Assembly: GCA_001724265.1 (NCBI GenBank)
Contig: MEDY01000036.1
Location: 62,001-126,000, forward strand
Source: Rhizaria sp. SCN 62-66
Lineage: Eukaryota
Direction: 5' to 3'
Length of the DNA: 64,000 nucleotides
In this document: positions 12,241-60,175 of the stretch, piece after piece
How the letters are laid out: each line of letters starts with the position of its first letter
Position numbering within the stretch: position 1 is the stretch's first letter
Notes under the pieces: generated by a model
What the model was told of the DNA's origin: nothing
The model's input: only the letters and a program-made list of their open reading frames with translations
The model's database searches: none
Position numbers and translations under genes: made by a program

Positions 12241-15200
12241 ATGGACCCCTTCGCGTCCATGTACGCCTCGCCGTCGTCGCGGCAAACGCGGCCCGTCTAC
12301 ACTAAGGACCACGCCTACAACGCCGCCATGGCCGGGCCCCGTCCTGCCCAGCATTACCACGCACAGCACCCCGGCACCCGCGCCGCGCACAACAATGGCA
12401 CCAACTACGTTGACTCCTCGTCCTCCTCAGCCCAGCAGCAGGGAGGTGTTGTCAGTTCCAACGTCGGCGCTCTCAGCGGCGTTTCATCGGCGTCCTCTGT
12501 GCCATCGTACACGCCGCTGCCGTACTCGCAGCTGGCTTTTGCGCAGGTGGTGCCCGTGGCGCTCAGCACGCCGGGCCGCGAGCGCCGCGTGCTGCCTCTG
12601 ACGTGCAAGATCTTCGTCTCTTTCCCCGCCTCGGCATCGGCCTCGACGCTGCCCGATAACCACAACGGCGGCGTTCAGGGCCACCACGGTCACAGCCCTG
12701 CTGCTGCCGGCCGCGCCGCCGCGAACGCGGGCATCAATACGACGGGCACGCAACGCGCGCTGCTGCTGCAGCTGACGGACGAGACAGATCCCTACTTCCT
12801 CTACACCATGACTCTGACCGAGTCCGTGTTCCTCACGCTCAAGCGCGAACAGGACCTCGTCGTCGACTTCGGCGGCCTCCCCGCCTATCTCATCCGCCTT
12901 CTCGAGCACTGCATCGCCGTCCCCACCGCTAGCGGTGTGAACAACGGCTCGCGCAGCAACGCCCAGTCGGGCCACAGCACTGCCAACACCACGGCGGTGA
13001 ACCTCACTAACAACGCCAACGCCGCGACGCCCGCCCGCCGTGCCGCGCCCGCCGCGGTGAACTCGAGCGCTGCCGCGGCGTCGTCGTACCCGCCGTCGCC
13101 CGACATGACCGCTATGACTGCGCTCGATGAATCGTTCGCGTCCTTGACTACCGTGCCCGACCGCTCCTTCGCGCAGCTCATGCGCTCGCCGCCCGCAAAC
13201 GCCTCCGCCGCTGCTGCCGCCGCCGCTGTGGCCGCGGCTCACGGTCACTCGGCGAGCGCGCACGGGCGCAACGCTGCTGCCGCCGCTGCCGCTGCCGCTG
13301 CTGCTGCTGCGGCTCCGAAGTTCACTGCCGTGCTCGAGCTCACTGCCCGCGCTTCCGCCGGCTTTGATGATGACAGTGATAGCAATGGCTACTACCACGG
13401 TGAGGCCAGCCCTGAAGACACCCCCGGCAAGCACTATGGCCACAACGGCCAACCCCGGTCAAACACCGGCAATACTGCTGGTAGCACTGCGAGTAGCACT
13501 GTGTGGGATTGCAGTCTGCGCATCATCGAGAGCAACCAGTTCAAACACATCCAGCACCTCGCGCTGGCCGTAACACCGGGCAACGACGCGGGCGTCAAGG
13601 TCTACCTCGCGGAGCGCCTCATGGCGGCCAAGCGCGTTGTCGCAGACCTGCGCGCCGCCCTCTCGCGCGCGCAGGCCGACGCCGCCGCGCGCGCGGCCTC
13701 GGCGGCGGCGCTGGGGCAGGAGACGGCGGCGCTGCGGGCGCAGCAGGCGAGGGCTGCCGAGGATGCCGCGCGCGCGCATGCCGACGCCGTTTCTGCGCTG
13801 CGGCGCGCGCACGGGGACGAGCTGCAGGCTGTGCGCGCCACTGCCGACTCGCGCGTCGCCGAGAGCGATACCCGCCGCCGCGCGGACGCTGCCGAGGCCG
13901 CCGAGGCCGCCGCCGCGCTCAGGGCCGAGCTCAGCGCGGCCACGACGGCGCTCGCAGAGGCCGAGGCCGCGCGGCGCAGCGGCGAGGCGGCGCTGGCGGC
14001 GGCGACGCACGAGCTTGCCATCACGCGGGACGAGCGCGATAGGCTCGCGGGCAGGAAGGAGAGCCTCGAGACGGCGCTTGCCGCTGCAGAGCGCGCGGGA
14101 CAGCAGAGCCAGGTACGTCGCAAGCAGTCTAAATGTAAATCGCGATATGATTGGTCTATTTCGAAAATAACAATCTGTACTTAAACGTGTTGTACACTTT
14201 CTTATTGAAGTTCAATTTTTTTTCATAATTCTCACCGATTCGCATTTTAATATATCTTTTGTTTTGTTTTGTAGGTCCGTCTGGCCTCGCTGGAGGAGCG
14301 CGTGGCGCAGCAGGACGCGGCCCTCGCGGCGACCAGCACGCGCGCCGCCGCCGCCGAGGTGCGCGCGCGCGAGGACGGCGACACGCTGGCCGTGTTCAAG
14401 CGCGCCAACGCGGGCTTCGAGCGCAAGCTGGCCGAGGCGGCGGGCGAGATCGACAAGGCGAACCGTGTGATTGCGGTGCTGCAGACGGAGCTTAAGGCCG
14501 CGCGCGCGAAGGCCAAGACGCGCGGCGCTGCGGCGGCAGTCGCCGAGGGCAAGACTGGCGAGGCCGCGGCGGCCGTGGCGGAACTGCGGGGCGAGTTGGC
14601 GGCGGCGCGCGCGGCGGCGGCGGCGGCCGAGGCGGCGGCGGCGGCGCGCGCGGCCGAGACCAAGGCGGCGCAGGAGCAGCTGCACGAGGCGCGGGAAGGA
14701 CTGGCCGAGAGCGCGCGCATGATCGAGTGGCTCAACAAGGAGGTCGACCGCGCCAGCTCCAGCGCGCTCAACGCCAGCAGCGGCAGCAGCGGTCACCGTC
14801 AGACTGCGCTCACAGTCGCTCGCGGCAGCAACTCTGGCGGGAGCGCTAACAAGACTGCCTTTGTGACCGCGCTTGCTGACCCGCTTGTTAACCGTGCGAC
14901 TGCTGTAGGCGGCAATTCTGGCTACGGCGCGAGCGACGCGTTTGTGCCGACCTTTTCCCCTTTCAGCCCTACTTTGCTCCACACGCCTGCTGCCGCTGCC
15001 ACTGCTGCTGGGACCGTGTCCGCGGCAGCGGTGCTGACCGTGCCAGTCTCGGTACGCTCGCCGCTGCACGTTACGAACGCACTCGCGCGCGCTGGCTTTA
15101 ACAGCAACAACGGCAATGGCAGTAACGCGAATGGCACTGTGAGCGCGTTCACGTCGCCTGCGCACGTGTCGATTCTCAACAACACGACGTTCGCCAACAA

Positions 15201-16227
15201 CACCACCAATCTTGCCAGCGCCAGTGCGAGCAAGGGCGCCCCGCACAGCCCCGCGCTCATCGGCGCCGGCGTGACCGTGAGCCCCGGCGTGACCGTGGGC
15301 AGCGGGGTGACCGTGAGCGGCCCAGGCCTCGCCCGCAGTCACAACCACGGTCATAACGGCCTCACAGAGCAGGGCCACACAGCGCCGCATGATTTGGCTG
15401 GGCTGAGCTCGCCGTTCCACCCGCGCTTCCCCGCGCTGTCCTCCGCGCCCGGCTCCCCCGCCGGCGCGAGTCACAACACCGCCGCCACCACCGCTGTCGT
15501 GAGCGGCGCTGGGACTGCTGGCGACGCGCCGACGCCGCGCACCGCGGTGCCGCGGCCCACGCCCATCAGCGCAGCCATTTCTGCCCTCGGGGCCGCCGGC
15601 GCGGCGCACCACAACAACAACAACAGTGCGTTTGCGCTAGGATCCACGGGCTCTCCCTTCGGCCCCTCGCGTCCCCACACCGGCATCACCACTGTCAGCG
15701 AGACGAGCTCTAGCTCAAGCTCGCCGTTGCGCTCGTCATTTCTCCCCCCTTCTGCCGTGACGGCTGACAGCGTCAGCAGCAGCAGTGGCAGTGGCAGTCC
15801 CACCCCTATCGCTGCCCCTGTACACGCTCACAATCAAGCTCACGGCCACTCGGCCGCGGGCGTGATGTCGCCGCTGTCGCCACACTCGGCCCGCCTCACC
15901 AGCTCGCTGCTCTCGCTGCAGCAGCGCTGGGGCGTCGGCGCCGCCGCGAACGCCACGGACGCCGTTGCCGCAGGTACTGTCACTGGTCCCGCTGCGGGGA
16001 CGCACAGTGCTGAGCTCGACGATGAGGACGAGGACGATTATGACGCGTATGCACAGTACGCCGCTGCGTTTGCGGCGCCCGACGACCCGCTACCGCTCCC
16101 TCGCCTCTTCACTATGGGCGACACCAACGCCGTGCAAAACAACAACAGCAATGCGAGCCAGCTCGAGGCACTGCCCGCGGCGACGGTGCACGGGGCGGGT
16201 GCGAGCATGTCCAGCGCGTACTTCTAA
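12241..16227 (+). CDS. SAS6: Centriolar cartwheel protein SAS-6; exons 12241-14112, 14275-16227 (~1274 aa)
   Basis: PISA head motif 'LTDETDPYFLY...FLTLKREQDLVVDF...LIRLLEHC' and 'IESNQFKHIQHLAL...GND..VKVYLA', then an Ala-rich coiled coil containing 'MIEWLNKEV'; stop is TAA. Confidence 0.92.
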
Positions 16228-16545: not shown

Positions 16546-18525
16546 TCAGTTGTACTGATGCAGCCGCAGCAGCTTCTCCGGCGCGCACTCGGCCCTGCAG
16601 AGCGGGCAGCGCGGCTCCTTGCGCACAGCAACGGCAATGCAGCCCCAGCAGAAAAGGTGGCCGCAGTCTGTAGCCGTCGTGTGTGTGCGCGGCTCCATGC
16701 AAATCACGCACGTGCTGGTCGGCCGCGTCTCGAGCACCACAACCTCCACAGCAGCACCACCAGCAACAGCGCCGACATTCGCAACGACGCCAGCAGCAGT
16801 AGCAGCCGTTGCAGAGCTATTCGTGCTGTTGTTTGCGCTGTAGTAGTAGCCGCCGAGCAGAGGACCGTCCTCCGCCTCCTCGACCCCCCTTACACTTGTC
16901 TTGCAGCCGCTATCACTATCTGTGTTCGAGTTGCCACTCGAGTTGCTGTTGCTGTTGCTGTTGTTGATGTTGTTAGTTAGCATGAGGGTGGACTCCAAGG
17001 CCTCAATCCCGCCAGCCGCCTCCGCTTCAGCGTCGACTTCAGCCAGAAACGGCGTCAAATCACGCAAATCGGCGTATTTTTCACTCTCAAGCCCCTCGGC
17101 CTCGGCCGCCGCTTCCGCTTCCGCGGCTGCAGCGGTTTCGCGCTGCCTCGCCGCCTCGGCCGCAGCCGCAGCCTCCGCCTTAACGCGCGCGCGCTCGAGC
17201 CGGACCGCATCACTAACAACCGCACCGCCGGCGCTCTCGTAATCGTCGTCGCCTTTGTGATAGCTGCTGCTCAGCGCGCCGACGTCGTTGCTGTTGCTGC
17301 TATGCTCCCGCATGGCGCGCGCCCGCGCGAGCTGCGCCTGCCAGCGCCGCTGCGCCGCGGCCGTGAGTTGGCGCACGGCCACGGCGGCGGCCTGCTTCTC
17401 GCGCGCGCGCGCCGTGCGGAGCCGGTCCCAGTGCGCGCGTCGCGCCGCCCGCGCGCGCGCCGCCGCCAACCGCCGGCCCGCGGCGACGAGCAGGCGCAGG
17501 GACAGCAGGAAGGCCAGCACGGCGAGCTGCGTGCGATGGCCGGGCCGCGAGAGCGCAACGTAGCGGACGCCGGCGAGACGGTGCGCGAGCGTGTAGTAGG
17601 CGCCCGCGGCGTAGAAGGCGAGCAGGTGCAGCGGCGCGATGACGGGCTCCCACGAGCGGTGCCAGTGCAGCGCCAGCCGCAGCGCATGCAGCGCCGCCGT
17701 GGGGACAGTCTGCGTCGCCGAGAAGCGCAGCAGCGCAGCGTAGTGGCGGATAAAGCGGGCGACGCGGGCAAAGAAAGATGGCTTTTGTGGCGCTGCGCTC
17801 GCACTGTTTATCGCACCGTTGTTGATGTCGCTGCTAACTGAGTCGGAGTAACGGAATTGCGGTAGATGCAATGCCGGACGCGCACTAGGCGTGAATTTGG
17901 CGGCCAAATAGGGGCCAACGGTGTTGAGGAACACGTAGATGGCCCTGTGTACCGGCGCGAGCGGTGAGTAGGCGAGCGTCGGCGGCAGCTGGACCGCGTG
18001 CGGAGACTGCCTGAGGGGCTCCGCCGCTGCTGACTCAGTCACTGTTGCAGGTTGAAAAAGCGCATGAGCAGCAGCAGCAACAGTCGCAGTCGCAGACTCG
18101 TCATCCAAGCGGGAGCTGGGGTCCGCGCTCGACGTGGCGACCGTCGGCGGTGGCAGGGGCGGGTCCGAGGCCGCGGGGGCGCGGGGGCCGAAGAGCAGCG
18201 CGTCCGCGGCCGGCAGCGCCAGCGACGAGCCCGGGTTGGCCGTGTCGACAAGCAGGGCCGCGCGGCGCGGCTCCGCGGGTGAGATGGTCGGCGCGAGCGG
18301 AAAGAGGTCGCAGTACTCCTCGCCCATGGTGCGCCCGCCCGCGAGCGTCGTGGCGCCGTAGTACGCGAGGGAGCACGCCAAGTCAATTTCCGCGCTAAAG
18401 CGGGTCGCGTTCTGGCGGAAAAGCTGTTGTGCGATGTCTTTGACTTCGTGGCGCATGGAATCGACGTAGGAGACATCCTTTTGGGAGGCGCGAATGAGTT
18501 CCGGCTGCGGTGCCCAGAGGAACAT
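16546..18525 (-). CDS. PEX10: Peroxisome biogenesis factor 10 (Pex2/Pex12 N-terminal domain plus C3HC4 RING)
   Basis: 'APQPELIRASQKD', 'RTMGEEYCD', 'LHLLAFY..GAYY..AHRL.GVRY' and C-terminal 'CVIC...CGHLFCWGC...CPLCR'; stop is TGA. Confidence 0.93.
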   Translation of the reverse strand: MFLWAPQPELIRASQKDVSYVDSMRHEVKDIAQQLFRQNATRFSAEIDLACSLAYYGATTLAGGRTMGEEYCDLFPLAPTISPAEPRRAALLVDTANPGSSLALPAADALLFGPRAPAASDPPLPPPTVATSSADPSSRLDDESATATVAAAAHALFQPATVTESAAAEPLRQSPHAVQLPPTLAYSPLAPVHRAIYVFLNTVGPYLAAKFTPSARPALHLPQFRYSDSVSSDINNGAINSASAAPQKPSFFARVARFIRHYAALLRFSATQTVPTAALHALRLALHWHRSWEPVIAPLHLLAFYAAGAYYTLAHRLAGVRYVALSRPGHRTQLAVLAFLLSLRLLVAAGRRLAAARARAARRAHWDRLRTARAREKQAAAVAVRQLTAAAQRRWQAQLARARAMREHSSNSNDVGALSSSYHKGDDDYESAGGAVVSDAVRLERARVKAEAAAAAEAARQRETAAAAEAEAAAEAEGLESEKYADLRDLTPFLAEVDAEAEAAGGIEALESTLMLTNNINNSNSNSNSSGNSNTDSDSGCKTSVRGVEEAEDGPLLGGYYYSANNSTNSSATAATAAGVVANVGAVAGGAAVEVVVLETRPTSTCVICMEPRTHTTATDCGHLFCWGCIAVAVRKEPRCPLCRAECAPEKLLRLHQYN

Positions 18526-18933
18526 CGCGCAACACCTACTGATTGGAAAGATCGCATACAGAGATAGATTTGTGAGTGAATATGAATTATTTACAAGCTA
18601 TTGCACCATGGTTCAGTACGCATACTTCGGTTGACGGTCCCTGTGAGCAGGTATCTAGGAGGCCGAATGCACTCGACTCGACTTCAGCAGTCGACGCTGG
18701 CTCGTGGTGGCTTGAAGGGGGTCAGAGCCGTTGGATGTAAACACCACTCATGTTCTACAGTCTGATCGTCAAACTCAAATGCACACACTTATATCTATTT
18801 TTTGTATTGTATATTTTTTATGATTTAAATTATAGAGCACGAAACTTTAACTAATAGCTGCATCTAGCTTCGTTCGTGTCTAGGCTCTTGATAGCGTCCG
18901 CACTCCCCTTGCGTTGCTGCATTGCTCCTGCCT

Positions 18934-21900
18934 ATGAGCCGTCCCGTGTTCTCCCTCGGTGACGATCTTGTCACCGTGGACACCGCTACTGACAGCCTGC
19001 TCTCCGCTATTCGCGTGACCTCCCTCGCTTCCGGCCTCACCACAACCACTCACACAGCATCAGGCGACACCGTGACAGGCGCCTCTGCGTTGCTGCCGTC
19101 CACAGCCTTTGCCGCGACTGCCAGCGGTGCGTCATCGTTGCTGCGCCCTTTGCCGACTCTGGAGGCGCTGACGCAGGCGCTTCCACGCAGCGTTACTGGC
19201 GCTATCGTTGCTGGCCACGACTCAATCCTCTCGTCCCCCTCATCGACCCACAGCATCAACAGCAACAGCAGCAGTGCAGCTGTGGCCGCAAGTGGCGATG
19301 TGAAGGCGGGCAAGCGCGTGTTTGCGCCGCTGCCGTGGCAGGAGAACGGTGGGATCCGCGACCTCACGCGGCCCGTGCGTAGGGCAGACTCCACTGCCAA
19401 CAGCGGTAACCGCAGTGCTCCCAATAATAGCAATCCCAATCCTAACCCAAGTGCGAGCGCGAGTGCAGGCGGGGTGCAGTGGGGGGTTGATGCGCTGTCG
19501 AGCGACGACGAGGCCGACGCTGCTGTTGAGACAGTGCTCAAACAGCTTGCGTTCGGACATGCGATCACTGAAGACAACAGCGATGACACGAATCAGATCA
19601 GCTCGAGTGTGAAGAGCCCTCCATACAGTGATCTCAAGTCGGGCGGCGCTGGCTTTGTTGTTGATGTTACTGACTCTGTCCCGGCCCCTTCTACCACCAC
19701 TAACAACATCACGCTAAACTCTAACGCCCACACACTCTGCAGCCCACAGTCACCGTCAAAGCCCCATGCGCAGTCCGCTGCCGCCACTGGGGCGTCGTCG
19801 CGGCTGGCCGCGCTTGTCTCCGGCTGGGGCCACGCCACGGCGGCCCGCGGCGGCGCGGCGGGGCTCGCTGCGCACAGTCAGCTGCTGGCTGCGCTCTGCG
19901 ACGTCGGTGATAACGGTGGCGCCGACGGGGCGCTGCGGCGACTCGCGGGCGCAGCCATCGTGAGCGGGGGCGCGGCTCAGCAGGTGCAGAGCGATGATGC
20001 CAACATGGACAACACTATTGAGGACGAAGTTGTTGCTATTGGGAGTAAATATGCCGACAGTGACGACATCGGTGGGTTCGCTGCCGCTCTCGCTGCTGCA
20101 GCTGCTGTTGCACACAATGACGACGAAAATGCGATTTTGAGTGGTTTCGCTGCTGTTTCTGACGACAATGACGATGGGGACGATAACGACAACGGATATG
20201 AGTCTGACGCTAAGACGTTGCCTCCGTGGGAGTCGATTCTCGCCGCCGCTGCTGCTGCCAAGTCTCCTGCCGCCGATGCCGCTGCTGCGACGAATGGCAC
20301 AGCTAAGAATGACGGCGAGTTGCTCAAAGTGTCCGAGTTCAGCGACAACGACGACGACGACGACGATGAGACCTACGGCAAGCAAGTCATCCCGGCTGAG
20401 AAGAAGAGCGACGTCGACGAGGATGACCTGATGGCGAAGCTCGTCTCCGCCGGTGCGCTCATTCTCCCTCCGTCGATGCGCTCTGTGAAGAAGAGCAACG
20501 ACAACAAAAACACGGCAAGTAAAGTTGGCGACAGTAATACGAAGGCTCACTCTCGCATTCAGGCGAATCTTGGTGATAATGACAACAACGCTAAGATTAT
20601 TAGCCCGTCTTCCTCGACTCCTGCCCCTGCCAACCTCACCGGTGCCGCGAATGTCTCTGCCCCCGCTTCTGCTGCTGTTGGTGACGCCGCTGACGACGAC
20701 GACGATGATGACGATGGCTACATCTTATCGAGCAGCTATTTGCACTCGAAGTACCTCAATGCACTGCCTAGTGACACCACTAACCTGCGTGATACGGCAA
20801 CTGATGTCCACACGAACACAAGCAGAAGCAGGAGCAACTACAACGACAGTCTCGTCAACGACAGTAAATCTGCTGACTCCGCGCTCAGGCAGGTGTCGTC
20901 CTACTTGTCCCACGCGCTCGCTTCCTCCTGTGCGCTGCCGCCGCCCTCGGTGCTGCCGTACGCAGATGTTAAGCCGCATTACCTCCGCGACGATAGCGAC
21001 TACAACAAGGTCGACACGAGGGGTACAGAGTCCTACGCGCAACAGCAACCGTTTGCCTCATCATCTTCCTTGTCTTCTTCTTCATTTGCTTCTGCCTCGA
21101 GTGGTTCCGTCAATGTGGCCGCCGCGATGGACAGTACGCTCGCCGCGCTGGCCGCGAGCGACAGCGCGCTGCTGGCCTCCGCGCGCCGCGCAGTCACCAC
21201 TCAGTCACGCTTCCCTCAATCACAGTTGCAGCCGCAGCTCCAGTCTGAGTCGTTCGGTGGCGCCGGTGTCCACGGCAGTGTCCGCGGGAACGCTGCAGGG
21301 ATCACGATCGGAGACGGCGACATCAACGCTGACTACGACGACTACGAGAAGGAGGCCGCGTTTGTGCGCCGTGCACTGTTTGCCTCTCTCGGCAGCGATG
21401 CGCCAGTCATGAGTACGCAGCGGACCGATGACGCTCGCGCCGCTGTCGCCGCCGCCGCCAACGCCGCCGCAAGCGCTGCTGCAAACGCCGCCACTGCTGC
21501 GATCACCGCGCGTAGCGTCTACGTGCCCAGTGCAAGCGCGCTCGCGTCCACTGCAGGTGGTGTGCGCGAATCCAGTGCGAGGGCGAGTGCGTTTGCCGGC
21601 GTGGTGCAGCCGTCTGCCGAGCTCCTCGCGCGCTACGGCGACGCTTTTGTGGCGCCTACACTCGCCAAAGCGAGGCACGGGGTTGCTACGTCGCAATACA
21701 GCGTTGATACAGCGCGTTATAGTGCTGATACGGCAAGTTTCAGTGATAGTAATGCTGCTGCGGTGCGGTGCGGCAGTGCTGTTGAGAGCTGCGCTGGAAG
21801 CCAGCGCTATCAAAGCGGGTCCAGCTATCAGACCGCCGACGACAAGTTAGAGTCTACGCGTGCTGATATGTTGCCCGCTGCGTTTGCGGCTGTGTTTGTC

Positions 21901-22857: not shown

Positions 22858-23256
22858 AACATATCACCATCTGCGCTCGTTAGAAAGTGGAGCTTGAATA
22901 ACATCACTCAAATGATTATAATAATAATTCAGTTTTAAAATATAGATTTTTAGAGCAAATACAAAAGTGTTTAATACCAGAGTCAACTTGAAGTCATGAC
23001 TGTACGCAGAATGCATGCACAGTCATCTTGGTTTCACTCGCCACCGCGACAACAAGACGGCACTCTCCATCTTAAAACTTAACTGATCTTGCTACATAGA
23101 CGGAAAAACTCATTTTATAATGCCTTTTCAACGTGTTTTCAGGTTAATTTATTATTAAAAATGTATCTTGATACATGACCTTATTGCTTCAAGTTGTATT
23201 CTGCTTCCCCAACAAACCCCTATTCACTCTCCGCTGCCAGAGCGCGCGTCACGTAC

Positions 23257-36799: not shown

Positions 36800-36832
<33 letters not shown>

Positions 36833-44458: not shown

Positions 44459-44560
44459 GAACTTAAAGAACATTTGAATAAACATGAATACACTCCTTAT
44501 TTGGTTAGTGGTCCTGTAAACATAAAAAATCGACTTTATTTGGAATTTTCATGCGGTCGT

Positions 44561-45608: not shown

Positions 45609-46008
45609 AATACTTTTGTCGGTGCTTGACGACTTCAGTCGAGAGATCTAGCAGTCTTTCCTTCGTCGGATTGTTCAAGTCGTGAAAGCAGTGGTTCGTG
45701 GCAAGATTTGTGTTTAAAAGTGTATTATTGAGATCAAACTATAATATGATTGGAGAAACGTATATGTAAGAAAGAAAACAAAGCAAAATGAAACGAAAAA
45801 CGAAAATGAAAGAACAAAGTAATATCTACGTAGAACAAGCGTGTGTCGTGTTCGTTGAAAAGACAAGCAAACAGCAGCACATCAATGAGGAGAGTTATTA
45901 TAAGCAAGCGTAAGCCAGCAATACATGTTTGACAAGCAGAAGCCTTAGGTAGAACGGTACTCAAAAAGCACAACCTAAGATCAACTAATTTGCAGCTGAC
46001 ATGTTTGC

Positions 46009-48522: not shown

Positions 48523-49015
48523 CGGAAGCGGGGACTTCGGTGGTTGTAGTTGTGGGGGAAACAGGGTGAACGAAGGGTGCAAGAAGGGGGTCAGTTGTGA
48601 GGCAAGGACAGTTTGTGGAAACATATAAATAGGGCGATAAATAAAATAGTGCAAGATCATCTCATACATCCATCAATAACAATATTCCACGAAATAGACA
48701 CGACGCTGGAGACGTTTTGCGGGGCGCTCCTCTCGACTCACCGACCGACCAACTGGAACTGGGACCGTGGGCCAAAGTTAAGCCTGCGAGTGACTGTGAG
48801 CGACGGCCGGCCCGACCGACTTGGGAACGAATGGTCAGCTCGAAAAACAAGCAAACTGGGTGCATTAATTGTTACCTTAAAGGATATTAAAACAAAATCA
48901 ATTTATATAATTGGGCGATATAACTTATATCGACTCAACACTTCTACTGACGGATGTTTCATGCCACTGTGCGCTAACTTCTGCTCTTTTTTTGGTTGTC
49001 ACTCGCTTGCCACAG

Positions 49016-52000
49016 ATGCACGCTTTCCAGCCTGCATTGATCCGCGTTGCCACGTGCAACTTGAATCAATGGTCGATGGAATTTGAGACCAATCTCCGCA
49101 ACGTGCGCACCTCTATCCTTGAGGCCAAGCGTCAAGGAGCCTCCTACCGCACCGGTCCCGAGCTCGAGGTCCGTCTTTGGCACGCACCCCGTCGACATCT
49201 TCTTTAAGTCCGCACACTGTCCCCATAACGTCTCTCCTCGAACTGTTTACTTTTGTCATAGATCCCTAACCTCACATTTGTTTGCTTTCCTATGCTTTTA
49301 TGTCTACAGCTGTGCGGCTACGGCTGCGAGGACCACTTCTACGAGGCCGACACGGAGGCCCACTGCTGGGAATCGCTGGTCGCTCTCCTGACTGACCGCG
49401 CGCTCGACGGCCTGCTCTTCGACGTCGGCATGCCCGTCTCGCACTGCGGCGCGCGCTACAACGCTCGCGTGTGGTGCTACTCGGGCGCCATTCTCGCGAT
49501 TCGCCCCAAGCTGGTGCTCGCCGACGACGGCAACTACCGCGAGCCCCGCTGGTTCACTGCGTGGAACCCCGCCCTTTCTCGCGCGCCCACACACACCGCA
49601 GCCCCCGCGTTCTCCGCAGCAGCCGCAGCGACCGCCTCCGTGGGCCCCGGCGCGGCTGCCGTCGTGCTGCCGAGTCCGCTGCCCGCGACGCTGGCGCAGT
49701 TCGGGCTCCCGGCCGCCGTGACCGCCGCGACGGGGCAGGCGTGGGCGCCGATGGGCCTGATCGCAGTGGCCGCCGCCGACGTCACGCTCGCCAGCGAGAT
49801 CTGCGAGGAGCTCTTCGCGCCGGAGCCCGTGCACGGCAGGCTCTACGCCGCCGGGGTCGACATCGTGTCCAACGCGTCGGTACGCGATATCCCACTAACA
49901 CGAACAATTAGATAATGTACTATCCTGCGTAGTATGCTGTGCGCGTGCTGCCTGACGCCTATCTTGTTCTTTACGTCAAAATCAACGGTTTTATTTTATC
50001 TCACAACATGTTTTGTCTTTTTATTTTGTTTTGTTTGCATATTGTACATAATAGGGCTCGCACCACTCTTTGCGCAAGCTTGACCTGCGCCTGGACCTTA
50101 TCCAGGGCGCGTCGCGGCGCTACCACGCGGCCTACGTCTACGCCAACCAGCAGGGATGCGATGGGGGCCGGCTTTACTTCGACGGCTGCGCGTGCGTGGC
50201 CAGCGAGGGCGCTATCGTCGCCCAGGGCTCGCAGTTTGGGCTCAAGGACGTCGAGGTCGTCACCGCGGTGCTCGATATCGACCGGCAGAGGGCCGCCGTG
50301 CTCGCGCACACCAGGTACGATCCTATAACGTCGCAGGAGAGAAGAAACAACAACTTGAGAACAATATTAGCGATACCGTTGATGCATTATAACTGTGCTC
50401 CATGATGTTCCGACGATGCTGAATTATGAAGATTTCGTTGACGTTGTTGTTGTTGTTTTTTTACTAATTTTGTGTTCATATGTTTTGCTTTGTGCTATCC
50501 ATCACCGGTTTAGTGCGCGCGTTGTCAGCGCCTCCGCGGCCACTGTGCCCACCGTCCACCTCTCAGTCCCCCTGTGTCTGGCCGCGACCACCCCTGCCCC
50601 CGCCGACAGCACGGTGACTGGCCTGGAGAGCCGCCTGAGACAGCTCCCGGCGTTCGCGACCGTGCACAGCAAGACCACGCAGTTCTCTGCTCAAAGCAAC
50701 GTTACCAGCAGTCAGCTGCTGCTGTCCCCCGCGCCCTCCCCCACCATCAACACTACCGCCGCCGCCGCCGCCGCCGCCGCCGCTGCTGCTGCTGCTGCTG
50801 CTGCTGCAGGCGACTCTGCCACCAGCAGCAGCAGCAGCGCCGTCGCACCCACTGCCGCCGCTGCTGGCGCTGTGACTAGCGCTGCGGCTGGCGGTAGGTG
50901 TGTTGTGCACGCGTCGCCACCGCTCGCCCCGCTTCTGCACTCCTTCACCGAGGAGATCGCGCTGGGCCCAGCGTGTTGGCTGTGGGACTACCTGCGGCGC
51001 TCGGGCATGGCGGGCTTCTTCCTCCCGCTCTCCGGGGGCGCGGACAGCGCCGCCACGGCCGCCATCGTTGGCGCCATGTGCACGCTTGTCGCCAACGCCT
51101 ACGCAATGGGCATCCCGGAGGTACGTCGTCGTAATTGCCTCTTTATTCGTAGTCAAAGAACAAAAAAATTGAACTGAAATATGATCAATCTTTAAAGTGA
51201 AAGTGTGTTTTTTTAGATATTTTTAAACGACGAAAGTATGATTTCTCACTAAGTATGTTTAATATGCGTTTTTGTTGTGCTATATCCGATCTGTGCAGGT
51301 TGTCGCGGACCTGGACCGGCTGTACCCGCGGCCCGCCAACGCGCTGCTGCCGACGCGGCAAGCGATCGCTGCTCACCTCTTCTTCACGTGCTACATGGGC
51401 ACCGTTAACTCCTCCGCAGACACGCGCGCGCGCGCCCGCGCCGTGGCGGCCGACATCGGCTGCACACACAGCGAGGGCGACATCGATGCCGTGGTCGAGT
51501 CCTCGGTGTCATGGGTTACCACGCTCACGGGTACGCGGCCTACCTTCGAGTCGGGCGCGCGCACCGAGAACCTCGCGCTGCAGAACGTGCAGGCACGCGT
51601 ACGCATGGTCCAGTCTTACCTCGCCGCCCAGCTGCTCCTGGCCGCCCGCGGCCGCAGCGGCGCTCTCCTCGTCCTCGGCTCTGCCAACGTCGATGAAGGG
51701 CTGCGCGGGTTCCTCACTAAGTACGACTGCTCGGCCGCGGACATCAACCCCATCGGCGGCATCTCCAAGCTCGACCTCCGCGCGTTCCTCTACTGGGGCG
51801 CCGGTGCCTCGGCGCTCAACTATCCGGCGCTGGCGACTGTCGCCGCGGCGGCCGCGTCGCCCGAGCTCGTCCCGGCCTCGGCCACCGCGGGCGGCGCGCA
51901 GGTCAGCGAAGAGGACATGGGCTTCAGCTTCGAGGAGCTGGGCGCCATGGGCCGGCTTAGGAAGCTGCAGGCCTGCGGCCCGGTGGGCATGTACGTGCAG

Positions 52001-52406
52001 CTCAGGCGGGTCTGGAGTAGCTCCAAGAGCGCCAAGGCGGTGGCAGAAAAGGTACGCTTTCATATCAACCAATATATTCGCTCTATTGGGACACTGCTCT
52101 CATCAATTTGCCGTTTTTTGGATTTAAGATCACAGATCAAATCCGGCTTCTCACTTTTGTTTTGTTTTGTGGTTATTTTCTCCTGCACGTATGTAGGTCA
52201 AGTCGTTCTTCCGCTACTACGCCATCAACCGGCACAAGATGACCACTATCACGCCCTCGTACCACGCGGAGAGCTACAGTCCCGACGACAACCGGTTCGA
52301 CTTGCGACAGTTCCTCTACTGCGTTGCCTGGCCCCGGCAGTTCGCCACGATCGACAAGCTGGTGGCCGCGGAGGAGGCTACTGCGAGAGCGCAGTGCAAG
52401 CTGTGA
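49016..52406 (+). CDS. NADSYN1: Glutamine-dependent NAD+ synthetase; exons 49016-49168, 49310-49879, 50055-50314, 50514-51120, 51299-52051, 52197-52406 (~850 aa)
   Basis: Nitrilase domain '[10 protein letters not shown]', 'GPELE', 'RPK', 'EICEELF', 'SGSHH'. Synthetase 'LPLSGGADS', 'LALQNVQAR', 'TKYDCS', 'NRHKMT', '[10 protein letters not shown]'. Ends in CKL followed by TGA. Confidence 0.96.
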
Positions 52407-52626
52407 ACAGACTGACTGAGTCTTAGGACCGAAAAAACTTAGGAATCTGCGTCTATCGCGTCGGGCCTGGCCTGAACGACGATATACGGCGCTGATGCTG
52501 AGCTTTTAATGCGTTGGCGAGAGTGAGTTAGCTTTTTGATGTGTTCATTCATGTGCTGTTTGAGTGCTTGTATGTGGTACAGTCGTGAATTGGCAGAAAT
52601 CGTCGGTCCAGCTCAGCTGTGGTCAG

Positions 52627-52673
52627 TAGAAACAAGTGTATCACGTTCAGGACTAGAAACAAGTGTATCACGT
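52627..52673 (+). repeat. Intergenic 20-bp direct repeat TAGAAACAAGTGTATCACGT x2
   Basis: Exact copies at 52627-52646 and 52654-52673. Confidence 0.85.
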
Positions 52674-53298
52674 GCATATCAAGTTAATTCTCACATATAC
52701 TGTTAACTATAGAAACACAACATGATTAATAATAAGAATACAAAGTTCAAATCCCAAATCACGGATTTTTACCCGTCTTATGACTCCGTTTTGCGTTTTC
52801 CTCGCAACCCTCGCCCACTCGTCTCGCCTCGGTCCGCCTCAGCCCCTCTGTCCCTCGTGTTGGGAGACGGTGGCAGGGGGCCAGCAGCGGCTGCTGGGCG
52901 TGGAGCTGTGGAGGAGGCCAACGATCTCTCCGTGAAACAAAACGCTGGTGATGATGATATAGACGTCATTTATTTCGCGTGCTTTTGTGCTGTTTTGATA
53001 TAAGTCATGATTTAGTTTTTGATTTTAAACACTTTGAGCACCGTCGTGGACAATTGACAGCGCTAGGCCTGCCTCTCAGTGTCAAAACTGGGATGATTTG
53101 CAGAGATGGTTGCGAATTCCTCATTTTCTATTTCTATCATCAAATAACATATCTCCAGTCGCAATGACAATTCATTCATCTTTAATGTGGTTGCGCGTAT
53201 CTATTAGTCCCGATTTTGTTAACTTTCACTTTGTTTATGACCGAAATCTCGCCCTCTTTGTGCGTGGCCTTAGGAAGGGGATCTGGAGAACAACTCGG

Positions 53299-56200
53299 AT
53301 GCAACCCTCCCTCTCTCCCGCCGCTGTGGACGCGCACCCCGTGTCCGCCCCGCCGCCCGAGCCCGTGCGCCCTGCGCTGCCGGACCTCCGCAACTCGTCC
53401 TGCGTCTGGGCCGGCAACGTGTGCCCCACACTGACGGACGGTGAGGTCCGAGCCGCCTTTGAGCCCTTCGGCGAGATCATCGACTCCCGCCGCTTTTCAA
53501 CCTCCAACTGTGCCTTTATCACTTACAGGACGATCGACAGCGCGCGCGCTGCGCTCGTGCTTGAAGGCACGACGCTGGGCACGATGACGCTCACGCTCAA
53601 CATCGGGCAGACCTCGCGGCATCTCTGGGTCGGCAACCTACCCGAGGACATCACGTCGCAGGAAATTGCAGACATCTTTGCCGTCTATGGCCGGGTTGAG
53701 AGCACATGGCTCATGGCTAATTCCAGGGTTCGTCTTTTTTTGTATCTCTACTTTACCGTCAAATTTGATAACCTAGTTTGTATTTACTGCAATTCGTCCC
53801 GACAAGGTGACGCATGCCTTGCTCACGTCGACCGTTCTGCTCTGCTCTTTGATCTCGCCTTAAATTGCAATTATAGAGCTGCTTTGTCAACTACGACGAC
53901 TTGTATGATGCTGAGGTTGCATTCAATGCCATGAACGGTGCTAAAATTAATGACAAGGTGCGTTTCACGAAACACTGCGCCCACAATCCCACTTTTTTAA
54001 TTCGCATGTTTCCCCTCCTGTCAGCTTTCTTATTTGACCGTTTTTTCCCTTTCATGCGTTTTAAGTTAGTTTTTGACTTTTATTTACTGTATCAGTGCAT
54101 ATCTCCCGCAATTCTCTCATTCTTGCCCTGTATGTCTCTCTCTTGACTCTGTTCAGGTCATCTCCATCAACTACCAGTGGAACAACTCCCGCCGCAACGG
54201 CATCGCCACAAAAGTCTGCACCAGCGGCGACCACCCCGCCGGCCACAAGGGTGGCCCCAACGGCAACGGCAGCGGCAACGACGATAGCAACGGCGACGGG
54301 GTCGAGGGCAAGTCCAACAGCAGCGCCCCGAGCGTGACCGTGAACGGCATCAGCATCAGCAACCACGGCAACCACGGCAACAACGCTGCTGCCGTGGGCG
54401 TGAACGCCACCAGCAACGGCGCCAACAACGGCCGCCTGCGCAAGGCGAACAAGATCGCCGCCGCCATCGCCGCCGCCGCGATGGGGGAGGGCGCGCCGCT
54501 TGCGCTGGCCGCGTCGCTGCTCACCGCGGGCAGCAGCAACAACATCAACATCAACACGCACGCCCACGCGCACAACGCCGCTGGAAGCGCCGCCAACGCC
54601 GGTAAGCAGGCCGGCGCGGGCAAGGGGAGCAAGAACAAGGCCACACGGGCCAACGGCGGCGTTTCGAACGTCATGTCGGGGGCGCCCGGGCTGAACTTCG
54701 ACTTTAGCGCTGCCGCGCTCGCCGCCGCGTCGCTGTCAAACGCTGCTGCCGGCAGCGCAGGCGACGCTGCCACCACTGCTGCTGCTGCTGCGGCCGGTAC
54801 GAGTGATGACGCGGTGGCCGCCGCTGTTGGCGCTACGGTCAAGAGCGGCGGCAAGAGCAAGCGCGCCCGCAGCGCCGCCAAGCACGCCGCCATGATGGCC
54901 GCCGCGGCCGCCGCCTCCGCGGACGTGACCGCCAACGCCGCCGCGGCCGCGGGCGAGGGCCCGACGAACCAGCTGTTTGTGTCGAACATCCACGCGGGCA
55001 TCGAGGCGCACGCGCTCATCGCGTTCCTGACCACGCAGTTCAACCTTTACTCGAACAACCGTGTCGTGTGCGTCAAGGCCTTTCCCGCGCGCGGCTTCGC
55101 GTTCGTGACGTTCGACTCGACCGAGGCCGCCGCCACGGCCAAGGCGCGCGCGCGCGTCGAGCCCGTACTGCTGCTGGGACTGCCGCTCAAGGTCGGCTTC
55201 GGCAAGCACGTGAGCTACACGGGCATGTTCCCCGAGCGCATCGACCCCGTGCGCATGCTGGCACAAATCTCAGCCGCCTCGACCGCGCAGAAGGGCTACT
55301 GGGCCACGCTCATGCAGACGCCCGCAACCACCGCGGGCGCCGCGGGTGCGACTGTGGGCGCCACGGGTGCCACGGACGCCGCGACCGTGGGCGGCGCGAG
55401 TTCCGGCTCCGCCTCCACGATGCAGGCCACCCACGCTGCCGCTGCCGCTGCCGCCGGCACTGGCACTGGCGCGGGCGCCGGGTCTGGCGCGGGCGCGAGC
55501 GCTGTGGGCGGCGCGAGCGACGACGCGGCGGCCGCGGCGGCGCTCATGGCGGCGTTGGGTGGCGGCGCGGACCCAGCCTCCGCCGCGGCCGCAGCTGCGG
55601 CCGCGGCTGCCGCCGTTGTCGCTGCAGCCGCCAACGCCAACGGTGGTGTTGGCGCCAATACCACGAACGCGCTGGCGAGTCTCAATGCGCTGAACGTTAG
55701 CAACCTCAACGGTCTGAGCCTTAACGCTGCCGGTCTGGCCGGGCTCGGGGCGAATGGACTGACCGCGAATGCGCTGGGCGCCTCAGGACTAAACGGCATT
55801 AATGCCAACGCATTGGGTGGGATGAACTCTGTGGCGTTGGGCTCGCTGCAGAGCACGCTGCCGCTGTCTCTGCCCATGACTCTGCCCAACGGCCTCCAGA
55901 CTGGCCTCCAGACCGATCTCTCTGCGGGGCTCCAGGCCGGGCTATCGACGGGACTTCAGACGGGGTCGCTACTTCTGCAGAACGCTCTGCAGCCCAACGC
56001 TCTACAGGCCAGTAGTAACGCACTGCAGGCGAACGCTGCGCTTACTGGCGCTGCGCTCGGCGGCGCGATGCCGCAGATGGCGCAGATGTCGCAGATGCAT
56101 GGCCTGCCGCTGTCGCTCCAGTCGAGCGCCACGCTCGCCGGTGGCAGCCTGCAGACCGGGGGCTTGACCGGCGCGCTGACGATGAGCAACGGGATGTCCA

Positions 56201-58227
56201 TGTCTCTGCCACTGCCGCTACAGATGCAGCAACAGCAGCAACAACAGCAGCATCAGCAGTTGTTGCAGCAGCATTACCTTCAGCTGCAGCTTCAGCAACA
56301 GCAGCAGCTGTCTCCCGCCTCCGCTGCCGCCGCCGCCAACGCCATGATGCAGCCGGCCCTTCAGCTGCCTCCGCGCGCGCAGTACACCCCCCAGTCTCCG
56401 GCTAAGTCGCTCGGGCTTCCGCTGTCCCAGCAGCCGCCGTCGCCGTCGGTCGCAGCCACAACCCCGCAGGCGCAGCTGTCGCAGCAGGTGACGTACGTGC
56501 AGCTGCCCGATGGCACCGTCGTCGGAGTGCTGCCCGAGCAGCTCGCGCTTCACGGGGGCTCCGCCACCGCGGCGGCCACGACCGCAGCTAACGCCGCCAA
56601 TGCCGCCGCAGCAGCAGCGGCAGCCGCTGTCGCCGCTGGTGCAAATATGAACATGAACATGAATATGAACATGAACGCGGGTGCGGGCCTGAACGCGGGC
56701 CTGAACGTGAGCTCTAGCGTGAGCGTGGGGAGCGGACACAGCGCCCCGTCCTCGCGCGCGCACTCGCCCGCCGACCTTTCACTCGCTCTTAACGGCAACG
56801 GCAGCGTCAACGCAGTCGGCAGTGGCGGCCGCATCCGCAGCGCCAAGAGCTCCGCGAACGCGCACGCCGGCACCGGCGGCGGCGACTGCGGGAGCGACAT
56901 CAGCCCCCACGGCAGCATTGACTCGGCGCAGTCAGCGTCGTCGCCGTCGCTGCCGCCGCTGCTGCCGCCCCCGGGCTGCGTCGGATCCGTGTCGGCCGCG
57001 GGGTCCACCGTAGGGCTGCCCCACGTCCACACGGCCGCGGGCAGCGTGGCGGGAGGCAGTAGAGTCGAGTCGCCCTCGCCGGTGGACTCGACCGCCGCGC
57101 TCCCGCTCCTGCTTGGCGGCGGCCACAACCACGGCCACGCGAACGCGAACGCGAATGGCATTAGCATTCATCGGCAGCGGGCAGTGAGTGCGCGTGCCAG
57201 TGTGAGCAATGACAATCAAGCACCGTCGCAGCCTCAGTCATACACGGTTCACGGTCACTCGATTCCTGCCTACAATGCTCACAATGCTCATAACGCCTAC
57301 GGTAACTTTTTCCCCGGACCCAACGGCGTCCCGGCTGGTAACGGCGCCGTCGCCGCGACCGCTCACCCCACGCCCTCTGCGGCAGCGGCGCACGGCATGA
57401 GCCCCTACGCGCCCCCGGGCATGGTGGCCCTGGCCGCGCCGGGCGGCGGATACTACTATGTGCCTGACTTCAACAACATCAACACCGCCGCTGCCAACGC
57501 TCACGGTCAAGCTCACGGCCACGGCCACGGTCACGGTTCCAACCCGTACTTGGCTGCTGCTCACGGTCAGGGACACCAGCAGCCCTCGGATACACACGGT
57601 CTCTTGTCTGGACAGGGGTTTTACTACCCCCCGCCTCAGCACGCCCACGGTCACAGTCACGGTCACGGTAATGCTCACGGTCTCAGTCAAGGTCACTTCT
57701 ATCCGAATTCCCCTGCTGCTCACGGTCACTCTGCTCACGGTCACTCTGCCCTTGCCCACGGTCACTCCGCACACAGCCACGCGGGCTACCCGTATCCGCC
57801 GAATCCCTTCGGCTACGGCAGCCACCCCCTGCCCCCCATCACCACTCCTAATACTGCGAATGCGACTACGAGTACGGGCGCACCGTCACACCCGCGCGTG
57901 TCCACTGTCGCCGCGGCTGCTGCGCATGCTGCGACGGCCCCCGTGGCCGCTGCTGCGGCGGCGGCGGCGGCGAATAACTCGAATAGCGGGCTCGCAACAT
58001 ATCCGTACCCCTACTCCGGCCAATCCGCCTCCGTCTCCGCCGCCGCCGCCATCGTCCCCGGCAGCAAGACTGCCGGTAACAGCAACGGCGTTCAGGTGCG
58101 CGCGCAGTCGGCAACGTCCAGCACCAACCCCAGCGGCAGCAATGGCGCTGGCAAGGGTGGGCGCAACAGCCAAAACAACAAAAATGGCAGCAACAACGCT
58201 GCCCGTGGCAAGCAAGCCAGCGAATAA
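53299..58227 (+). CDS. RNA-binding protein with three RRMs and a long low-complexity tail; exons 53299-53727, 53877-53957, 54157-58227 (5' end uncertain)
   Basis: RNP2/RNP1 pairs 'VWAGNV...CAFITY', 'SRHLWVGNL...SCFVNY', 'LFVSNI...RGFAFVTF'; phase-0 introns; stop is TAA. Confidence 0.82.
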
Positions 58228-60135
58228 TGTGTTTCTTCGAAGTTTTACCAGCTTCATTGGATAACTAACCTGTGTTTTATCGCGCGGCTTTACTCTCTTT
58301 TGCTCAATATTCATGTTCCTGTGCGTCTTTACATCTTTTCTTGGAACTTGTTGCACTTTATGATGTCTTCGCTTTTTATGGCTAAGCCTTGTCTTTTTAT
58401 GTTCATCCCATCGGATGTTAAGTTTTGCTTTTAACGCGAGTAACGTGCAACAACATCAGCATGACAACAGTAACAGCAACAGTAACATGAACAGCGTTCT
58501 TCTTTTTTGTTTTGCAATTGCTGAGTTGTCTCTCCAGTTTGTTACACAGTTCGCTTCTCCCAGCGCCTCCGCCTCGGTCGCCTATTATGTGTTCTTCGTG
58601 TGTATCCGCCGTCACCGGCTATGAGACATCTGTGTTAATATGTGTTTGTGTGTGCTTCTATTTTGTTGTGCCTCCTGCACATGCATCACTTGATCACGCA
58701 CACTGTCTGTTTGTCAGTCAGTTCCGATCCGAGTCACACCACACAGCCTCTGTCCGTCGAGTCAGTGCCATCACAGTCAGTCACTTCAGTTGCTTAGTTT
58801 AAGAGGCCTACCAGAAATTCAATTGAGTCGTTTGCATTGTTTGTGCGGGCGGCGCACTTCCACAAGTGCTTTCGTTGCTGATGCTGGTATGTCAGCTGTG
58901 TTCATATTTTGTGTTGCTCTGTTGCAGATTTTTACGCACGCTCACACGCACACTTGCACACGCACGCGCACACGGTGTACACCGCTGAAAAAAAAAGACC
59001 ACTGACTGCAGTTGTCACGGTCACATAAGCTTAGATTGTTTGTAAGATTTTTGTATTGCTCTTTTTTTTTTATCGTTTAATCCCATGATTTGATCGTTTC
59101 TCACTTTGCGCCTCATTTAGTCTCTTCCGTCTCCCTCCCTGTTTACCTATGCGTATGTTTATCTTGCTTGCTTATTGGACAGCAACAAGCTTTGAAATCT
59201 TTTCCTAGTATCCCTGCATCTGAAAATTTGTTTCATCCCTTCATCTTTTCACATCGAGGAGAAGATCCACTCTCCCGTGGCATTCCCTCGATATCCTGCA
59301 TTGGCCGTTCATCTCTCTGTATATCCTTAGGATTGACGCTGTTTCCTCTAGTCATCACCACTCCCGCAAACACTACACTTTTCTCACTTTGCTTTGTTTC
59401 TCTCACTGCAACTGCACTGTCCATGTATAATTCTTTCTCCGTACTTATATACTACCGGTATTAGTATATTCTGTGTGTGGCTATGTTAACCCAACCCAAC
59501 TCGTGTCAATAACAACCATGGTCTATATTTCTCGCATGCGTACATCTTCTCCTTCGACGTACATTTACAATTGTAAGTGTAGGTCTGCTCTGTGAACTTG
59601 CGCTACTTAAATGTTGTCGTGGAGAGATGTCGTTCGTCATCTTCCCTCTTTATTATCGCTTTGTGTTTCCGACTGTATGTATCGCGCCTCTGCTGAATGA
59701 ATCAAGGCAGTTGGTGTACTACATATGACCCTGGACTAGCCTCGCTGACGTCACTGCACTTATCTTTTGTAAGGTCAGTTTGTGCGTGTGGGGTAGCCGT
59801 GAAATGGAAACTCACTGTGTTTTGTTTCATATGATCTCCTTTTGTGCTGTTATATCAATAAACCTCATTTCTTCAACTCAATATAACTCTCTTTATTTTA
59901 ATTGAAAGTTTTGTGTTGCTTTTATCTTGTCACCAAAGAGGTTTTCATTTTCGGCGATATTTTTTTGCATCGCCAGAAATTTGTTTAAGATTTATAAAAA
60001 GACACAAGCATCTCAAGTGGAGAAATAAAAAATGAATTCAATAGTATTAAATCCAAAAATTAATGATTAATACTTTCTAATGTGTATTTTTTCGCTTTTT
60101 GTACTTTAGATTTACTTAACATTTACGTTACCTCG

Positions 60136-60136
<1 letters not shown>

Positions 60137-60175
<39 letters not shown>
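60137..60175. repeat. T39 homopolymer (A39 on the minus strand) between convergent genes
   Basis: Directly visible. Confidence 0.9.

Follow-up and report, generated by a model that had tools for sequence, protein, structure and literature searches.

The stretch of DNA considered here, called the window, comprises 64,000 nucleotides of a contig assigned to Rhizaria sp. SCN 62-66 (MEDY01000036.1 of assembly GCA_001724265.1, positions 62,001 to 126,000, forward strand), and all coordinates below are positions within it. The subject is a nine-base word, CACGGTCAC, that recurs in the genes of the window. Coding sequence had a GC content of 64% and non-coding sequence one of 46%, with long open reading frames (ORFs) dense on both strands. 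Pfam domains identified SAS-6, a Pex2/Pex12 RING protein, two AAA ATPases, a ferric-reductase/NADPH-oxidase-like protein, NOP2, a glutamine-dependent NAD synthetase, Ndc80-like, RRM, and BRCT proteins, and a Ras-like GTPase. This content, with SAS-6 among the matches, therefore indicates a eukaryote with centrioles. An original prediction, made by eye from the letters alone, had singled out the word as a DNA-level signal, and the copies, their codons, and their neighborhoods were analyzed computationally.

Abundance and Form of the Word

Exact copies of CACGGTCAC numbered 26, of which 19 were on the forward (+) strand and seven on the reverse (−) strand. The original prediction had listed these same copies, all of which were found where it had placed them, and had put the chance expectation at roughly one in 64 kb. 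In agreement with that estimate, 100 dinucleotide-preserving shuffles of the window gave a mean of 0.66 copies and a largest value of four, and none reached 26, an excess of ~39-fold in these 64 kb. Among the 40 commonest 9-mers, CACGGTCAC was the sole one other than mono-, di-, or trinucleotide repeats. Together with the 9-mers overlapping it, it also headed the ranking of words other than simple repeats when amino-acid-preserving shuffles were used (25 observed, 5.0 expected). The exact word outnumbered each of its one-mismatch variants, which totaled 49 copies, the commonest being CACGGCCAC (seven copies), CACAGTCAC (six), and CACGCTCAC (five).

The reverse complement of the word is GTGACCGTG, so it is not a palindrome. 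The flank shared by the copies was limited to G-Y-T ahead of the core: GCT in eight, GCC in six, and GTT in four, or 18 of the 26 in total. Six of the seven minus-strand copies carried one of these three flanks, which bears out the earlier remark that the same flank is kept in both orientations. What recurs is a discrete word of double-stranded DNA, an exact 9-bp core, CACGGTCAC, that a preceding G-Y-T mostly extends to the 12-mer GYTCACGGTCAC. The 12-mer GCTCACGGTCAC was present in eight copies.

Counts of the hexamer phases were 26, 8, 4, 2, 2, and 18, with 26 copies of CACGGTCAC and two each of GGTCACGGT and GTCACGGTC, and the 12-mer CACGGTCACGGT was found only twice. A (CACGGT)n microsatellite was rejected on the basis of these unequal phases and the rarity of CACGGTCACGGT. 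Flanking sequence was compared in 310 pairs of copies separated by 100 nt or more, where the mean match beyond the core was 1.19 bases vs. 1.20 with the flank columns permuted and no pair extended nine or more bases beyond the core. Exchange of patches longer than the word, or a dispersed repeat such as a mobile element or paralogous segment, was rejected given this lack of shared flank. In 25 neighboring pairs, spacers were near random while the cores were exact: 46% of spacer positions were identical in register (136 of 297) vs. 34% between unlinked copies. The exactness of the cores is a consequence of how the copies were picked; units with spacers so drifted could not both keep nine bases by chance. 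Fourteen copies had an exact neighbor within 60 nt and 12 did not. Tandem Repeats Finder reported arrays at 15266–15318 (period 18), 57646–57696 (period 6), and 57716–57749 (period 15). Whole units, spacer included, were alike only in the last of these.

A separate excess was seen in alternating CG/GC runs of 8–13 bases, which occupied 58 places in the window (for example 1831–1843, 17400–17412, 51423–51435, 55144–55156, and 61018–61030) and were likewise far too common inside ORFs. One such 9-mer, CGCGCGCGC, had 69 copies where amino-acid-preserving shuffles gave 17.9, and no other 9-mer showed so large an excess. These runs are a second DNA-level bias in coding sequence.

Reading Frames and Codon Choice

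Twenty-five of the 26 copies lay inside long ORFs. The word was read as HGH in 18 copies, as VTV in four (three in the tail of SAS-6 exon 2 and one at 54334), and as DR(E) in three (21953, 21974, and 34725), and one copy was non-coding. Seven of the 25 ORF copies were antisense to covering, well-supported ORFs, and the 19:7 strand ratio follows gene orientation. The codon score used to support frames missed the HGH copies at 25798 and 25813, where the stop codon of the ORF falls within the scored flank.

Glycine codons in the window were 64% GGC and 17% GGT overall. In HGH tripeptides, GGT was used in 20 of 26 cases and the exact word in 18 of 26 (binomial P = 5e-11). With HGH collapsed to 18 independent loci, the exact word was present in 13 (P = 5e-7). 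The tripeptide itself was abundant, with 26 occurrences vs. ~0.8 expected from composition by arithmetic on codon counts (~30-fold). Regional codon usage was rejected as the source of the GGT preference, as other glycines within 40 codons of HGH were encoded by GGC 83 times, GGT 16 times, and GGG and GGA nine times each (14% GGT locally). A general codon-pair rule, with a T-ending codon before CAC, was also rejected because glycine before CAC outside HGH was GGC in 18 cases and GGT in two. The original prediction had held that the word is translated as HGH, VTV, or DRE depending on strand and frame and that it uses GGT where GGC is otherwise common; both statements agree with these counts. The GTGAGC of the antisense word was considered as a splice-donor mimic and rejected, since the two introns that could be placed start with GTAC.

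Synonymous codons were shuffled within genes (2000 runs), giving a mean of 3.92 and a maximum of 12 sense copies vs. 18 observed, and a mean of 0.94 and a maximum of five antisense copies vs. seven observed. A stricter shuffle inside 60-codon blocks gave 9.2 sense copies (maximum 16) vs. 18 and 3.6 antisense copies vs. seven (P = 0.005). When clusters were collapsed in addition, 13 sense clusters stood against 6.9 expected (P = 0.002).

Positions of the Copies and Their Host Genes

Copies were located in lineage-specific, low-complexity inserts of otherwise conserved proteins, as seen for SAS-6 and an AAA protein. Several same-strand, GC-rich ORFs in the window are separated by gaps of 88–118 nt with a GC content of 0.24–0.30 (14182–14274, 34231–34348, and 51175–51262). 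These short AT-rich gaps look like introns, and the two that could be placed have GTAC at their start and AG at their end. On this reading, SAS-6 would comprise two exons spanning 12205 to 16224. In the putative exon 1 (ORF 12205–14181), a single plus-strand copy at 12685–12693 lies in an N-terminal extension and reads HGH (QGHHGHSPA). Another single plus-strand copy, with a GCT flank, at 13240–13248 reads AHGH in an insertion between two conserved blocks, which are 201 residues apart here vs. 75 in the homologue P0124. A word-index homologue search with exon 1 returned no match at an E-value of 1e-5. HMMER against representative sequences returned only distant SAS-6 homologues (best 36% identity), of use only for showing that the copies sit in inserts. 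The disordered tail encoded by exon 2 (ORF 14275–16224, +) carries three antisense copies 18 nt apart at 15271–15315 (−), read as GVTVSPGVTVGSGVTVSG. This plus-strand ORF has a GC content at third codon positions (GC3) of 0.81 and a codon score of +33; the overlapping minus-strand ORF gives Arg-rich text.

Two full 12-mers, GCTCACGGTCAC, 21 nt apart at 21953–21982 (−) are antisense to ORF 18895–22854 (+) and read RDREQ and SDREQ. At both 21953 and 21974, the minus-strand HGH frame is closed by stop codons. The ORF at 23179–25848 contains a single plus-strand copy at 23806–23814 (AHGH), an exact copy at 25531 (AHGH) with the one-mismatch CACAGTCAC ahead of it at 25516 (together 25516–25539, +), and, at its C-terminal end, two copies 15 nt apart at 25798–25821 (+; HGHGHNAHGHN).

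In the AAA protein encoded at 28100–31771, two plus-strand copies 21 nt apart with unrelated spacers (31205–31234; AHGHLTTAHGH) fall in a low-complexity stretch between the P-loop part (residues 197–293) and the AAA lid (residues 1170–1203), which are ~880 residues apart. A single antisense copy at 34725–34733 (−), in ORF 34349–34987 (+) and downstream of its AAA lid domain, reads SDRES with a codon score of +41. The NADPH-oxidase-like ORF (37304–44455, 2384 codons) holds three single plus-strand copies: one at 40565–40573 (VHGH), one at 43742–43750 (VHGH) with CACAGTCAC 21 nt upstream at 43721, and one near its C-terminal end at 44213–44221 (GHGH). Conserved domains split by very long low-complexity inserts were a feature of ORFs 28100–31771, 12205–14181, and 37304–44455. 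A CCTGCG hexanucleotide array of 17.8 copies with 85% matches was also present at 36731–36837, in the ORF upstream of the NADPH-oxidase-like ORF.

The richest host was ORF 54070–58224 (+). A single antisense copy near its start, at 54334–54342 (−), reads SVTVN with a codon score of +56, and a single plus-strand copy at 57250–57258 reads VHGH. Within 57502–57534 (+), the exact copy at 57526 is preceded by the variants CACGGTCAA (57502) and CACGGCCAC (57514 and 57520). Two exact copies (57646 and 57658) lie in a degenerate 6-nt periodic stretch at 57646–57696 (+), and three more (57721, 57736, and 57757) at 57716–57765 (+), of which the first two together make a perfect tandem unit of 15 nt.

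Outside coding sequence, the prediction had pointed to one exact copy and to one mismatched copy in a promoter region, and both were placed as it described. The sole exact copy outside an ORF, at 59016–59024 (+), lies in AT-rich DNA ~790 nt downstream of ORF 54070–58224 and outside any ORF of at least 120 residues. The one-mismatch copy at 48790–48798 (−; CACAGTCAC on the minus strand) is intergenic, between the divergent genes for NOP2 and the glutamine-dependent NAD synthetase. Contigs of independent assemblies (record 8 of run X2, and L049, described below) end at 59012, four bases before the copy at 59016, and X2 record 8 starts at 57720, bordering the 15-nt array. These ends may reflect repetition, elsewhere, of sequence that begins near the copies. 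A run of 39 T residues was also noted at 60137–60175, in intergenic DNA upstream of the Ras-like gene.

The best named matches to NOP2 were from oomycetes, at 68–69% identity, and closer matches exist; no NOP2 relatives were recovered when metagenome contigs were searched.

Matches in Other Assemblies

Runs containing the stretch were, by record, bioreactor, wastewater, and activated-sludge metagenomes. Four run rows, from three studies, each contained at least half of the sampled words, and one of these rows may be the source of the window. Contigs of four runs (X2, X3, X4, and X6, the last being polyA RNA) were aligned on positions 40000–59999. The long pieces from runs X2 and X3 were identical to the window. 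In X4, summed depth reached ~32,000 at 57730 vs. ~8 over most of the stretch, and at 57713–57731 and 57746–57749 groups of 16 to 33 contigs departed from the window to the left or to the right. Run X6 behaved alike, with smaller groups of 8 to 11 contigs. Dozens of X4 and X6 contigs matched 57715–57749 and then differed from the window on both sides. The consensus sequences of the loose ends agreed only at ~0.4–0.6, and two of them held further copies of the word. The array sequence therefore occurs in many contexts in those samples, although it is not certain that all of the matching contigs come from this organism. Locus L094 shared 33 identical nucleotides with window positions 57714–57746. 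An X4 contig of 6008 bases showed four differences from the window over 3.9 kb, one of them a T/C difference at 40570. The word was thus gained or lost between close strains at copy 40565.

Metagenome contigs were scanned for the 12-mer followed by the 9-mer within 3–30 bases, which gave at least 120 loci. Among the matches listed, 13 loci had a common contig-name prefix. One of these, L049, had 1832 bases that were 100% identical to window positions 57181–59012. Consequently, the other twelve contigs (~30 kb) were treated as belonging to the same genome. One of the twelve, L066, contains an ORF with an RRM domain (E-value 1e-10) and SR-like protein text, in which two copies read SRS by the rare codons TCA CGG TCA, whereas other Arg-Ser runs use CGC with TCC, TCG, or TCT. 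Two more copies on the other strand of L066 read DRDR. In L048, a single ORF of 986 residues reads the word as HGH twice and as PTVT three times. For the 42 copies in the twelve contigs, codon-score frames were HGH in 15, VTV in 11, TVT in 10, DR in three, and RS in three, a tally to be read with the caveat that these frames contradict the domain-anchored frame of L066 for three of its four copies.

Among loci with other prefixes (at least 107), 28 were inspected, 22 of them with at least four copies and eight in detail, and these were local arrays with no relation to the window: RD repeats, His-Gly repeats, a 20-nt satellite, and, in high-GC bacteria, repeat proteins with LTVT strands. The remaining 79 among the matches listed have two or three copies each and lie outside the 28. 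In the high-GC bacterial contigs L015, L062, L065, L075, L107, and L111, the 9-mer is common and encodes an LTVT or TVT strand of repeated Ig-like domains in preferred codons. Such domain strands in bacteria are a quite different cause of a local excess of the 9-mer. Viral contigs matched at 20 loci with 2–4 copies each. Four of them (L128, L129, L131, and L138) have two copies 18 nt apart and an inverted third copy 1242 nt away, and this common layout probably marks one virus family with a repeat protein, unrelated to the window. A 27-mer searched for in prokaryote genome contigs was absent.

Discussion

The synonymous positions of the word are kept, it is present on both strands and in several frames, and its edges are sharp, so that the recurring peptides are products of the DNA word. 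We put the probability at about 0.8 that a discrete word at the level of DNA is the primary object and that the recurrent low-complexity peptides are its by-products. This is the core of the original prediction, in which a DNA-level word shapes the low-complexity regions of proteins, and that proposal is upheld by the fixed synonymous positions, both orientations, several frames, sharp edges, and unrelated peptides. The prediction is thus supported in part; its further suggestion, that the word is a signal read as a chromatin-protein site or as a target of recombination or modification, is a putative one.

How such a word would be maintained is a more tentative matter. In the mechanism we favor, the GC-rich, gene-dense genome of this uncultured eukaryote would keep or re-create the word regardless of reading frame, and low-complexity protein inserts would be the tolerant places that host it. 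The peptides AHGH, VTVS, (S/R)DREQ, L/PTVT, and SRS would then be by-products. Point changes or short local duplications would create copies, of which those fitting an open frame would persist. The word would be a putative recognition sequence for a sequence-specific factor acting on duplex DNA, kept exact by selection, with an architectural chromatin protein or an enzyme of repair, recombination, or modification as candidate readers. It is because of the sharp edges, exactness, and loose homotypic clusters, which look like those of a recognition sequence, that this reading is proposed. The full mechanism, a selected site on duplex DNA comparable to HIP1 (the highly iterated palindrome of cyanobacteria), is reached by inference only, and we hold it at somewhat short of an even chance. 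The more specific notion of a HIP1-like genome tag in a eukaryote, namely an asymmetric 12-bp site selected for chromosome architecture, for targeting of repair or recombination, or for base modification, is possible but doubtful. The data available to it are 64 kb plus ~30 kb that were ascertained by the word itself.

Several observations weigh against a word that acts at the level of DNA. All sense copies in the window (18 of 18) are in the HGH frame, and therefore the protein level filters the copies or partly drives them. The original prediction was staked on the excess outlasting a synonymous-codon shuffle with local tandem copies collapsed. This test did not refute it: the sense part stood (13 clusters vs. 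6.9), but the antisense part, with four clusters vs. 2.5 expected under 60-codon blocks, was not significant (P = 0.15). The non-coding DNA of the window is a small sample, 14.6 kb, with one exact copy vs. 0.083 expected (P = 0.08); one-mismatch copies there numbered six vs. 2.5 expected. The spacers of neighboring copies are somewhat more alike than background (46% vs. 34%), and the array at 57716–57749 is a plain tandem duplication, 100% identical over 2.3 units of 15 nt. The strain difference at 40570 is a change from T to C in the wobble base of GGT in copy 40565. In the long clean pieces of X4, the copies at 43742 and 54334 were unchanged, so that one of three covered copies differs. This difference speaks for turnover and not for strong conservation, and it is a single event. 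Finally, the assignment of the twelve further contigs to the same organism comes from a name prefix and one identical contig. These contigs were ascertained by the word pair itself, which makes their frames informative and their abundance not. Their frames are mostly based on codon score, with two or three frames often open and only L066 anchored by a domain.

The closest competitor of a selected recognition site is a functionless, sequence-specific mutational generator, in which biased repair or insertion from a fixed template writes the same 9–12 bases in either orientation and copies survive only where the frame stays open, then decay by point mutation. Taken by itself we regard it as unlikely, and it fits nearly as well as the selected-site mechanism. 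To our knowledge, no template or enzyme is known for it. It would account for the sharp edges, the lack of a flank common to unlinked copies, the presence of both orientations, and the wobble T held against codon preference. The commonest one-mismatch variants (CACGGCCAC, seven copies, and CACAGTCAC, six) are transition products, as a decaying copy would give, and the T/C strain difference falls exactly at the wobble base of copy 40565. The precedent of Eimeria, where repeats, some of them telomere-like, have spread through the genome, also lends it plausibility (PMC4199364). It is opposed by the single frame of the sense copies in the window, which would need a strong extra filter, and by the one stretch compared (40000–59999), in which no insertion or deletion polymorphism of the whole word was seen.

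The readings that follow fit worse than either a selected site or a generator. Expansion of a hexamer or of a 15–18-nt unit by slippage and unequal exchange, with exchange between loci keeping the units alike, is improbable as a general cause. It draws on the three arrays with periods 18, 6, and 15 (the last with 100% matches), the 14 of 26 copies with an exact neighbor within 60 nt, the 33 nucleotides that L094 shares with 57714–57746, and the resemblance of neighboring spacers already given. Such expansion leaves unexplained the very unequal hexamer phases (26, 18, 8, 4, 2, and 2), the two copies of CACGGTCACGGT, the exact cores beside near-random spacers, and the 12 copies without a near neighbor. 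No flank is common to unlinked copies, and exchange of patches beyond the length of the word is thereby excluded. Selection for the peptide Ala-His-Gly-His in disordered segments, for example in metal binding, is slightly less probable again. Its codons would come from translational or context preference, and the other frames would be chance or His-rich DNA recycled by frameshift or inversion. The 26 HGH tripeptides vs. ~0.8 expected, the HGH frame in 18 of 25 coding copies and in all sense copies, and the alternating-His text around many copies all speak in its favor. A selected peptide should nevertheless let synonymous positions vary, yet GGT is used in 20 of 26 HGH tripeptides vs. 17% overall and 14% locally, and no codon-pair rule accounts for this (GGC 18 and GGT two before CAC outside HGH). 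The same 12-mer also gives VTVS, DREQ, PTVT, and SRS, the last by rare codons in a domain-anchored SR-like protein; seven of the 25 coding copies are in other frames, and at 21953 and 21974 stop codons interrupt the HGH frame. Least probable, and very improbable in our view, is an RNA element, CACGGUCAC in mRNA bound by an RNA-binding protein or small RNA, with the antisense copies as by-products. The 18 sense vs. seven antisense ORF copies, the non-coding copy lying in the sense direction downstream of a plus-strand gene, and the contigs of polyA RNA run X6 matching the 57715–57749 array are compatible with it. TGA closes one antisense frame, however, which by itself predicts a 3:2 excess of sense copies; antisense copies match sense copies in both flank and exactness, and an Rfam scan of the window matched no family.

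Comparison with known systems sets the word apart from each of them in some respect. HIP1 has reportedly been linked to orphan methyltransferases. It is the palindrome GCGATCGC, present at 15- to 300-fold over expectation, and the study describing it reported no support for a role as peptide or RNA and argued for selection from the conservation of sites between genomes (PMC5861425). Both are short, exact, hyper-abundant words, mostly inside genes, in any frame, and overriding codon choice, and the original analogy with hyper-iterated words of this type is fair as a description. Independence of frame and peptide was also found here (HGH, VTV, and DR in the window; SRS, DRDR, and PTVT in further contigs), with HGH clearly favored. 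HIP1 is a palindromic octamer of bacteria, whereas the present word is asymmetric, eukaryotic, concentrated in low-complexity inserts, and often clustered. In place of conservation between genomes, there is here one strain comparison with one of three covered copies differing. Chi sites and DNA uptake sequences are likewise asymmetric words over-represented within genes, and a DNA-processing machine reads them. They differ from the present word in being bacterial, and their definition includes a known reader as well as a strand bias that follows replication or uptake. Micro- and minisatellites share with it the three local arrays of periods 6, 15, and 18 nt, but not the unequal phases, the unrelated spacers, or the copies of which about half are singletons. 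His-rich disordered segments with HGH or HxH text are matched by most window copies, which encode alternating His text; here, however, codon choice is fixed, and with the further contigs included the word gives rise to four more types of peptide. In Eimeria, more than half of all proteins contain CAG or telomere-like repeats, translated in several frames, and a DNA-level role has been proposed for them (PMC4199364). As there, a DNA repeat prefers coding sequence, uses several frames and strands, and occupies neutral parts of many unrelated proteins (PMC4199364). The Eimeria repeats are genuine tandem arrays with units of three or seven nucleotides and encode homopolymer runs (PMC4199364), whereas the present word is a discrete, phase-specific 9–12-mer, alone or in loose clusters with unrelated spacers.

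A literature search, with supplementary files outside its reach, found no asymmetric, phase-specific word of this kind described in eukaryotic exons, and a full-text search for the 9-mer gave, among the matches listed, only primers or constructs. The organism is present in several public engineered-wastewater data sets, which puts a whole-genome test within reach. If the word is selected, it would be the equivalent in a eukaryote of the hyper-iterated words of bacteria, for which a function likewise has yet to be settled, and would offer a clear case of a DNA constraint dictating the look of disordered protein segments. Were it a HIP1-like tag, the demand for the word would write AHGH, VTVS, DREQ, LTVT, and SRS into the disordered parts of a large fraction of the proteins. 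If the copies are instead written by sequence-specific repair or insertion, this would be a new mutational mechanism creating low-complexity protein sequence. Either way, codon-based gene finders will be misled in such genomes, and recurrent low-complexity peptide motifs should not be taken as functional without checking the DNA that encodes them.

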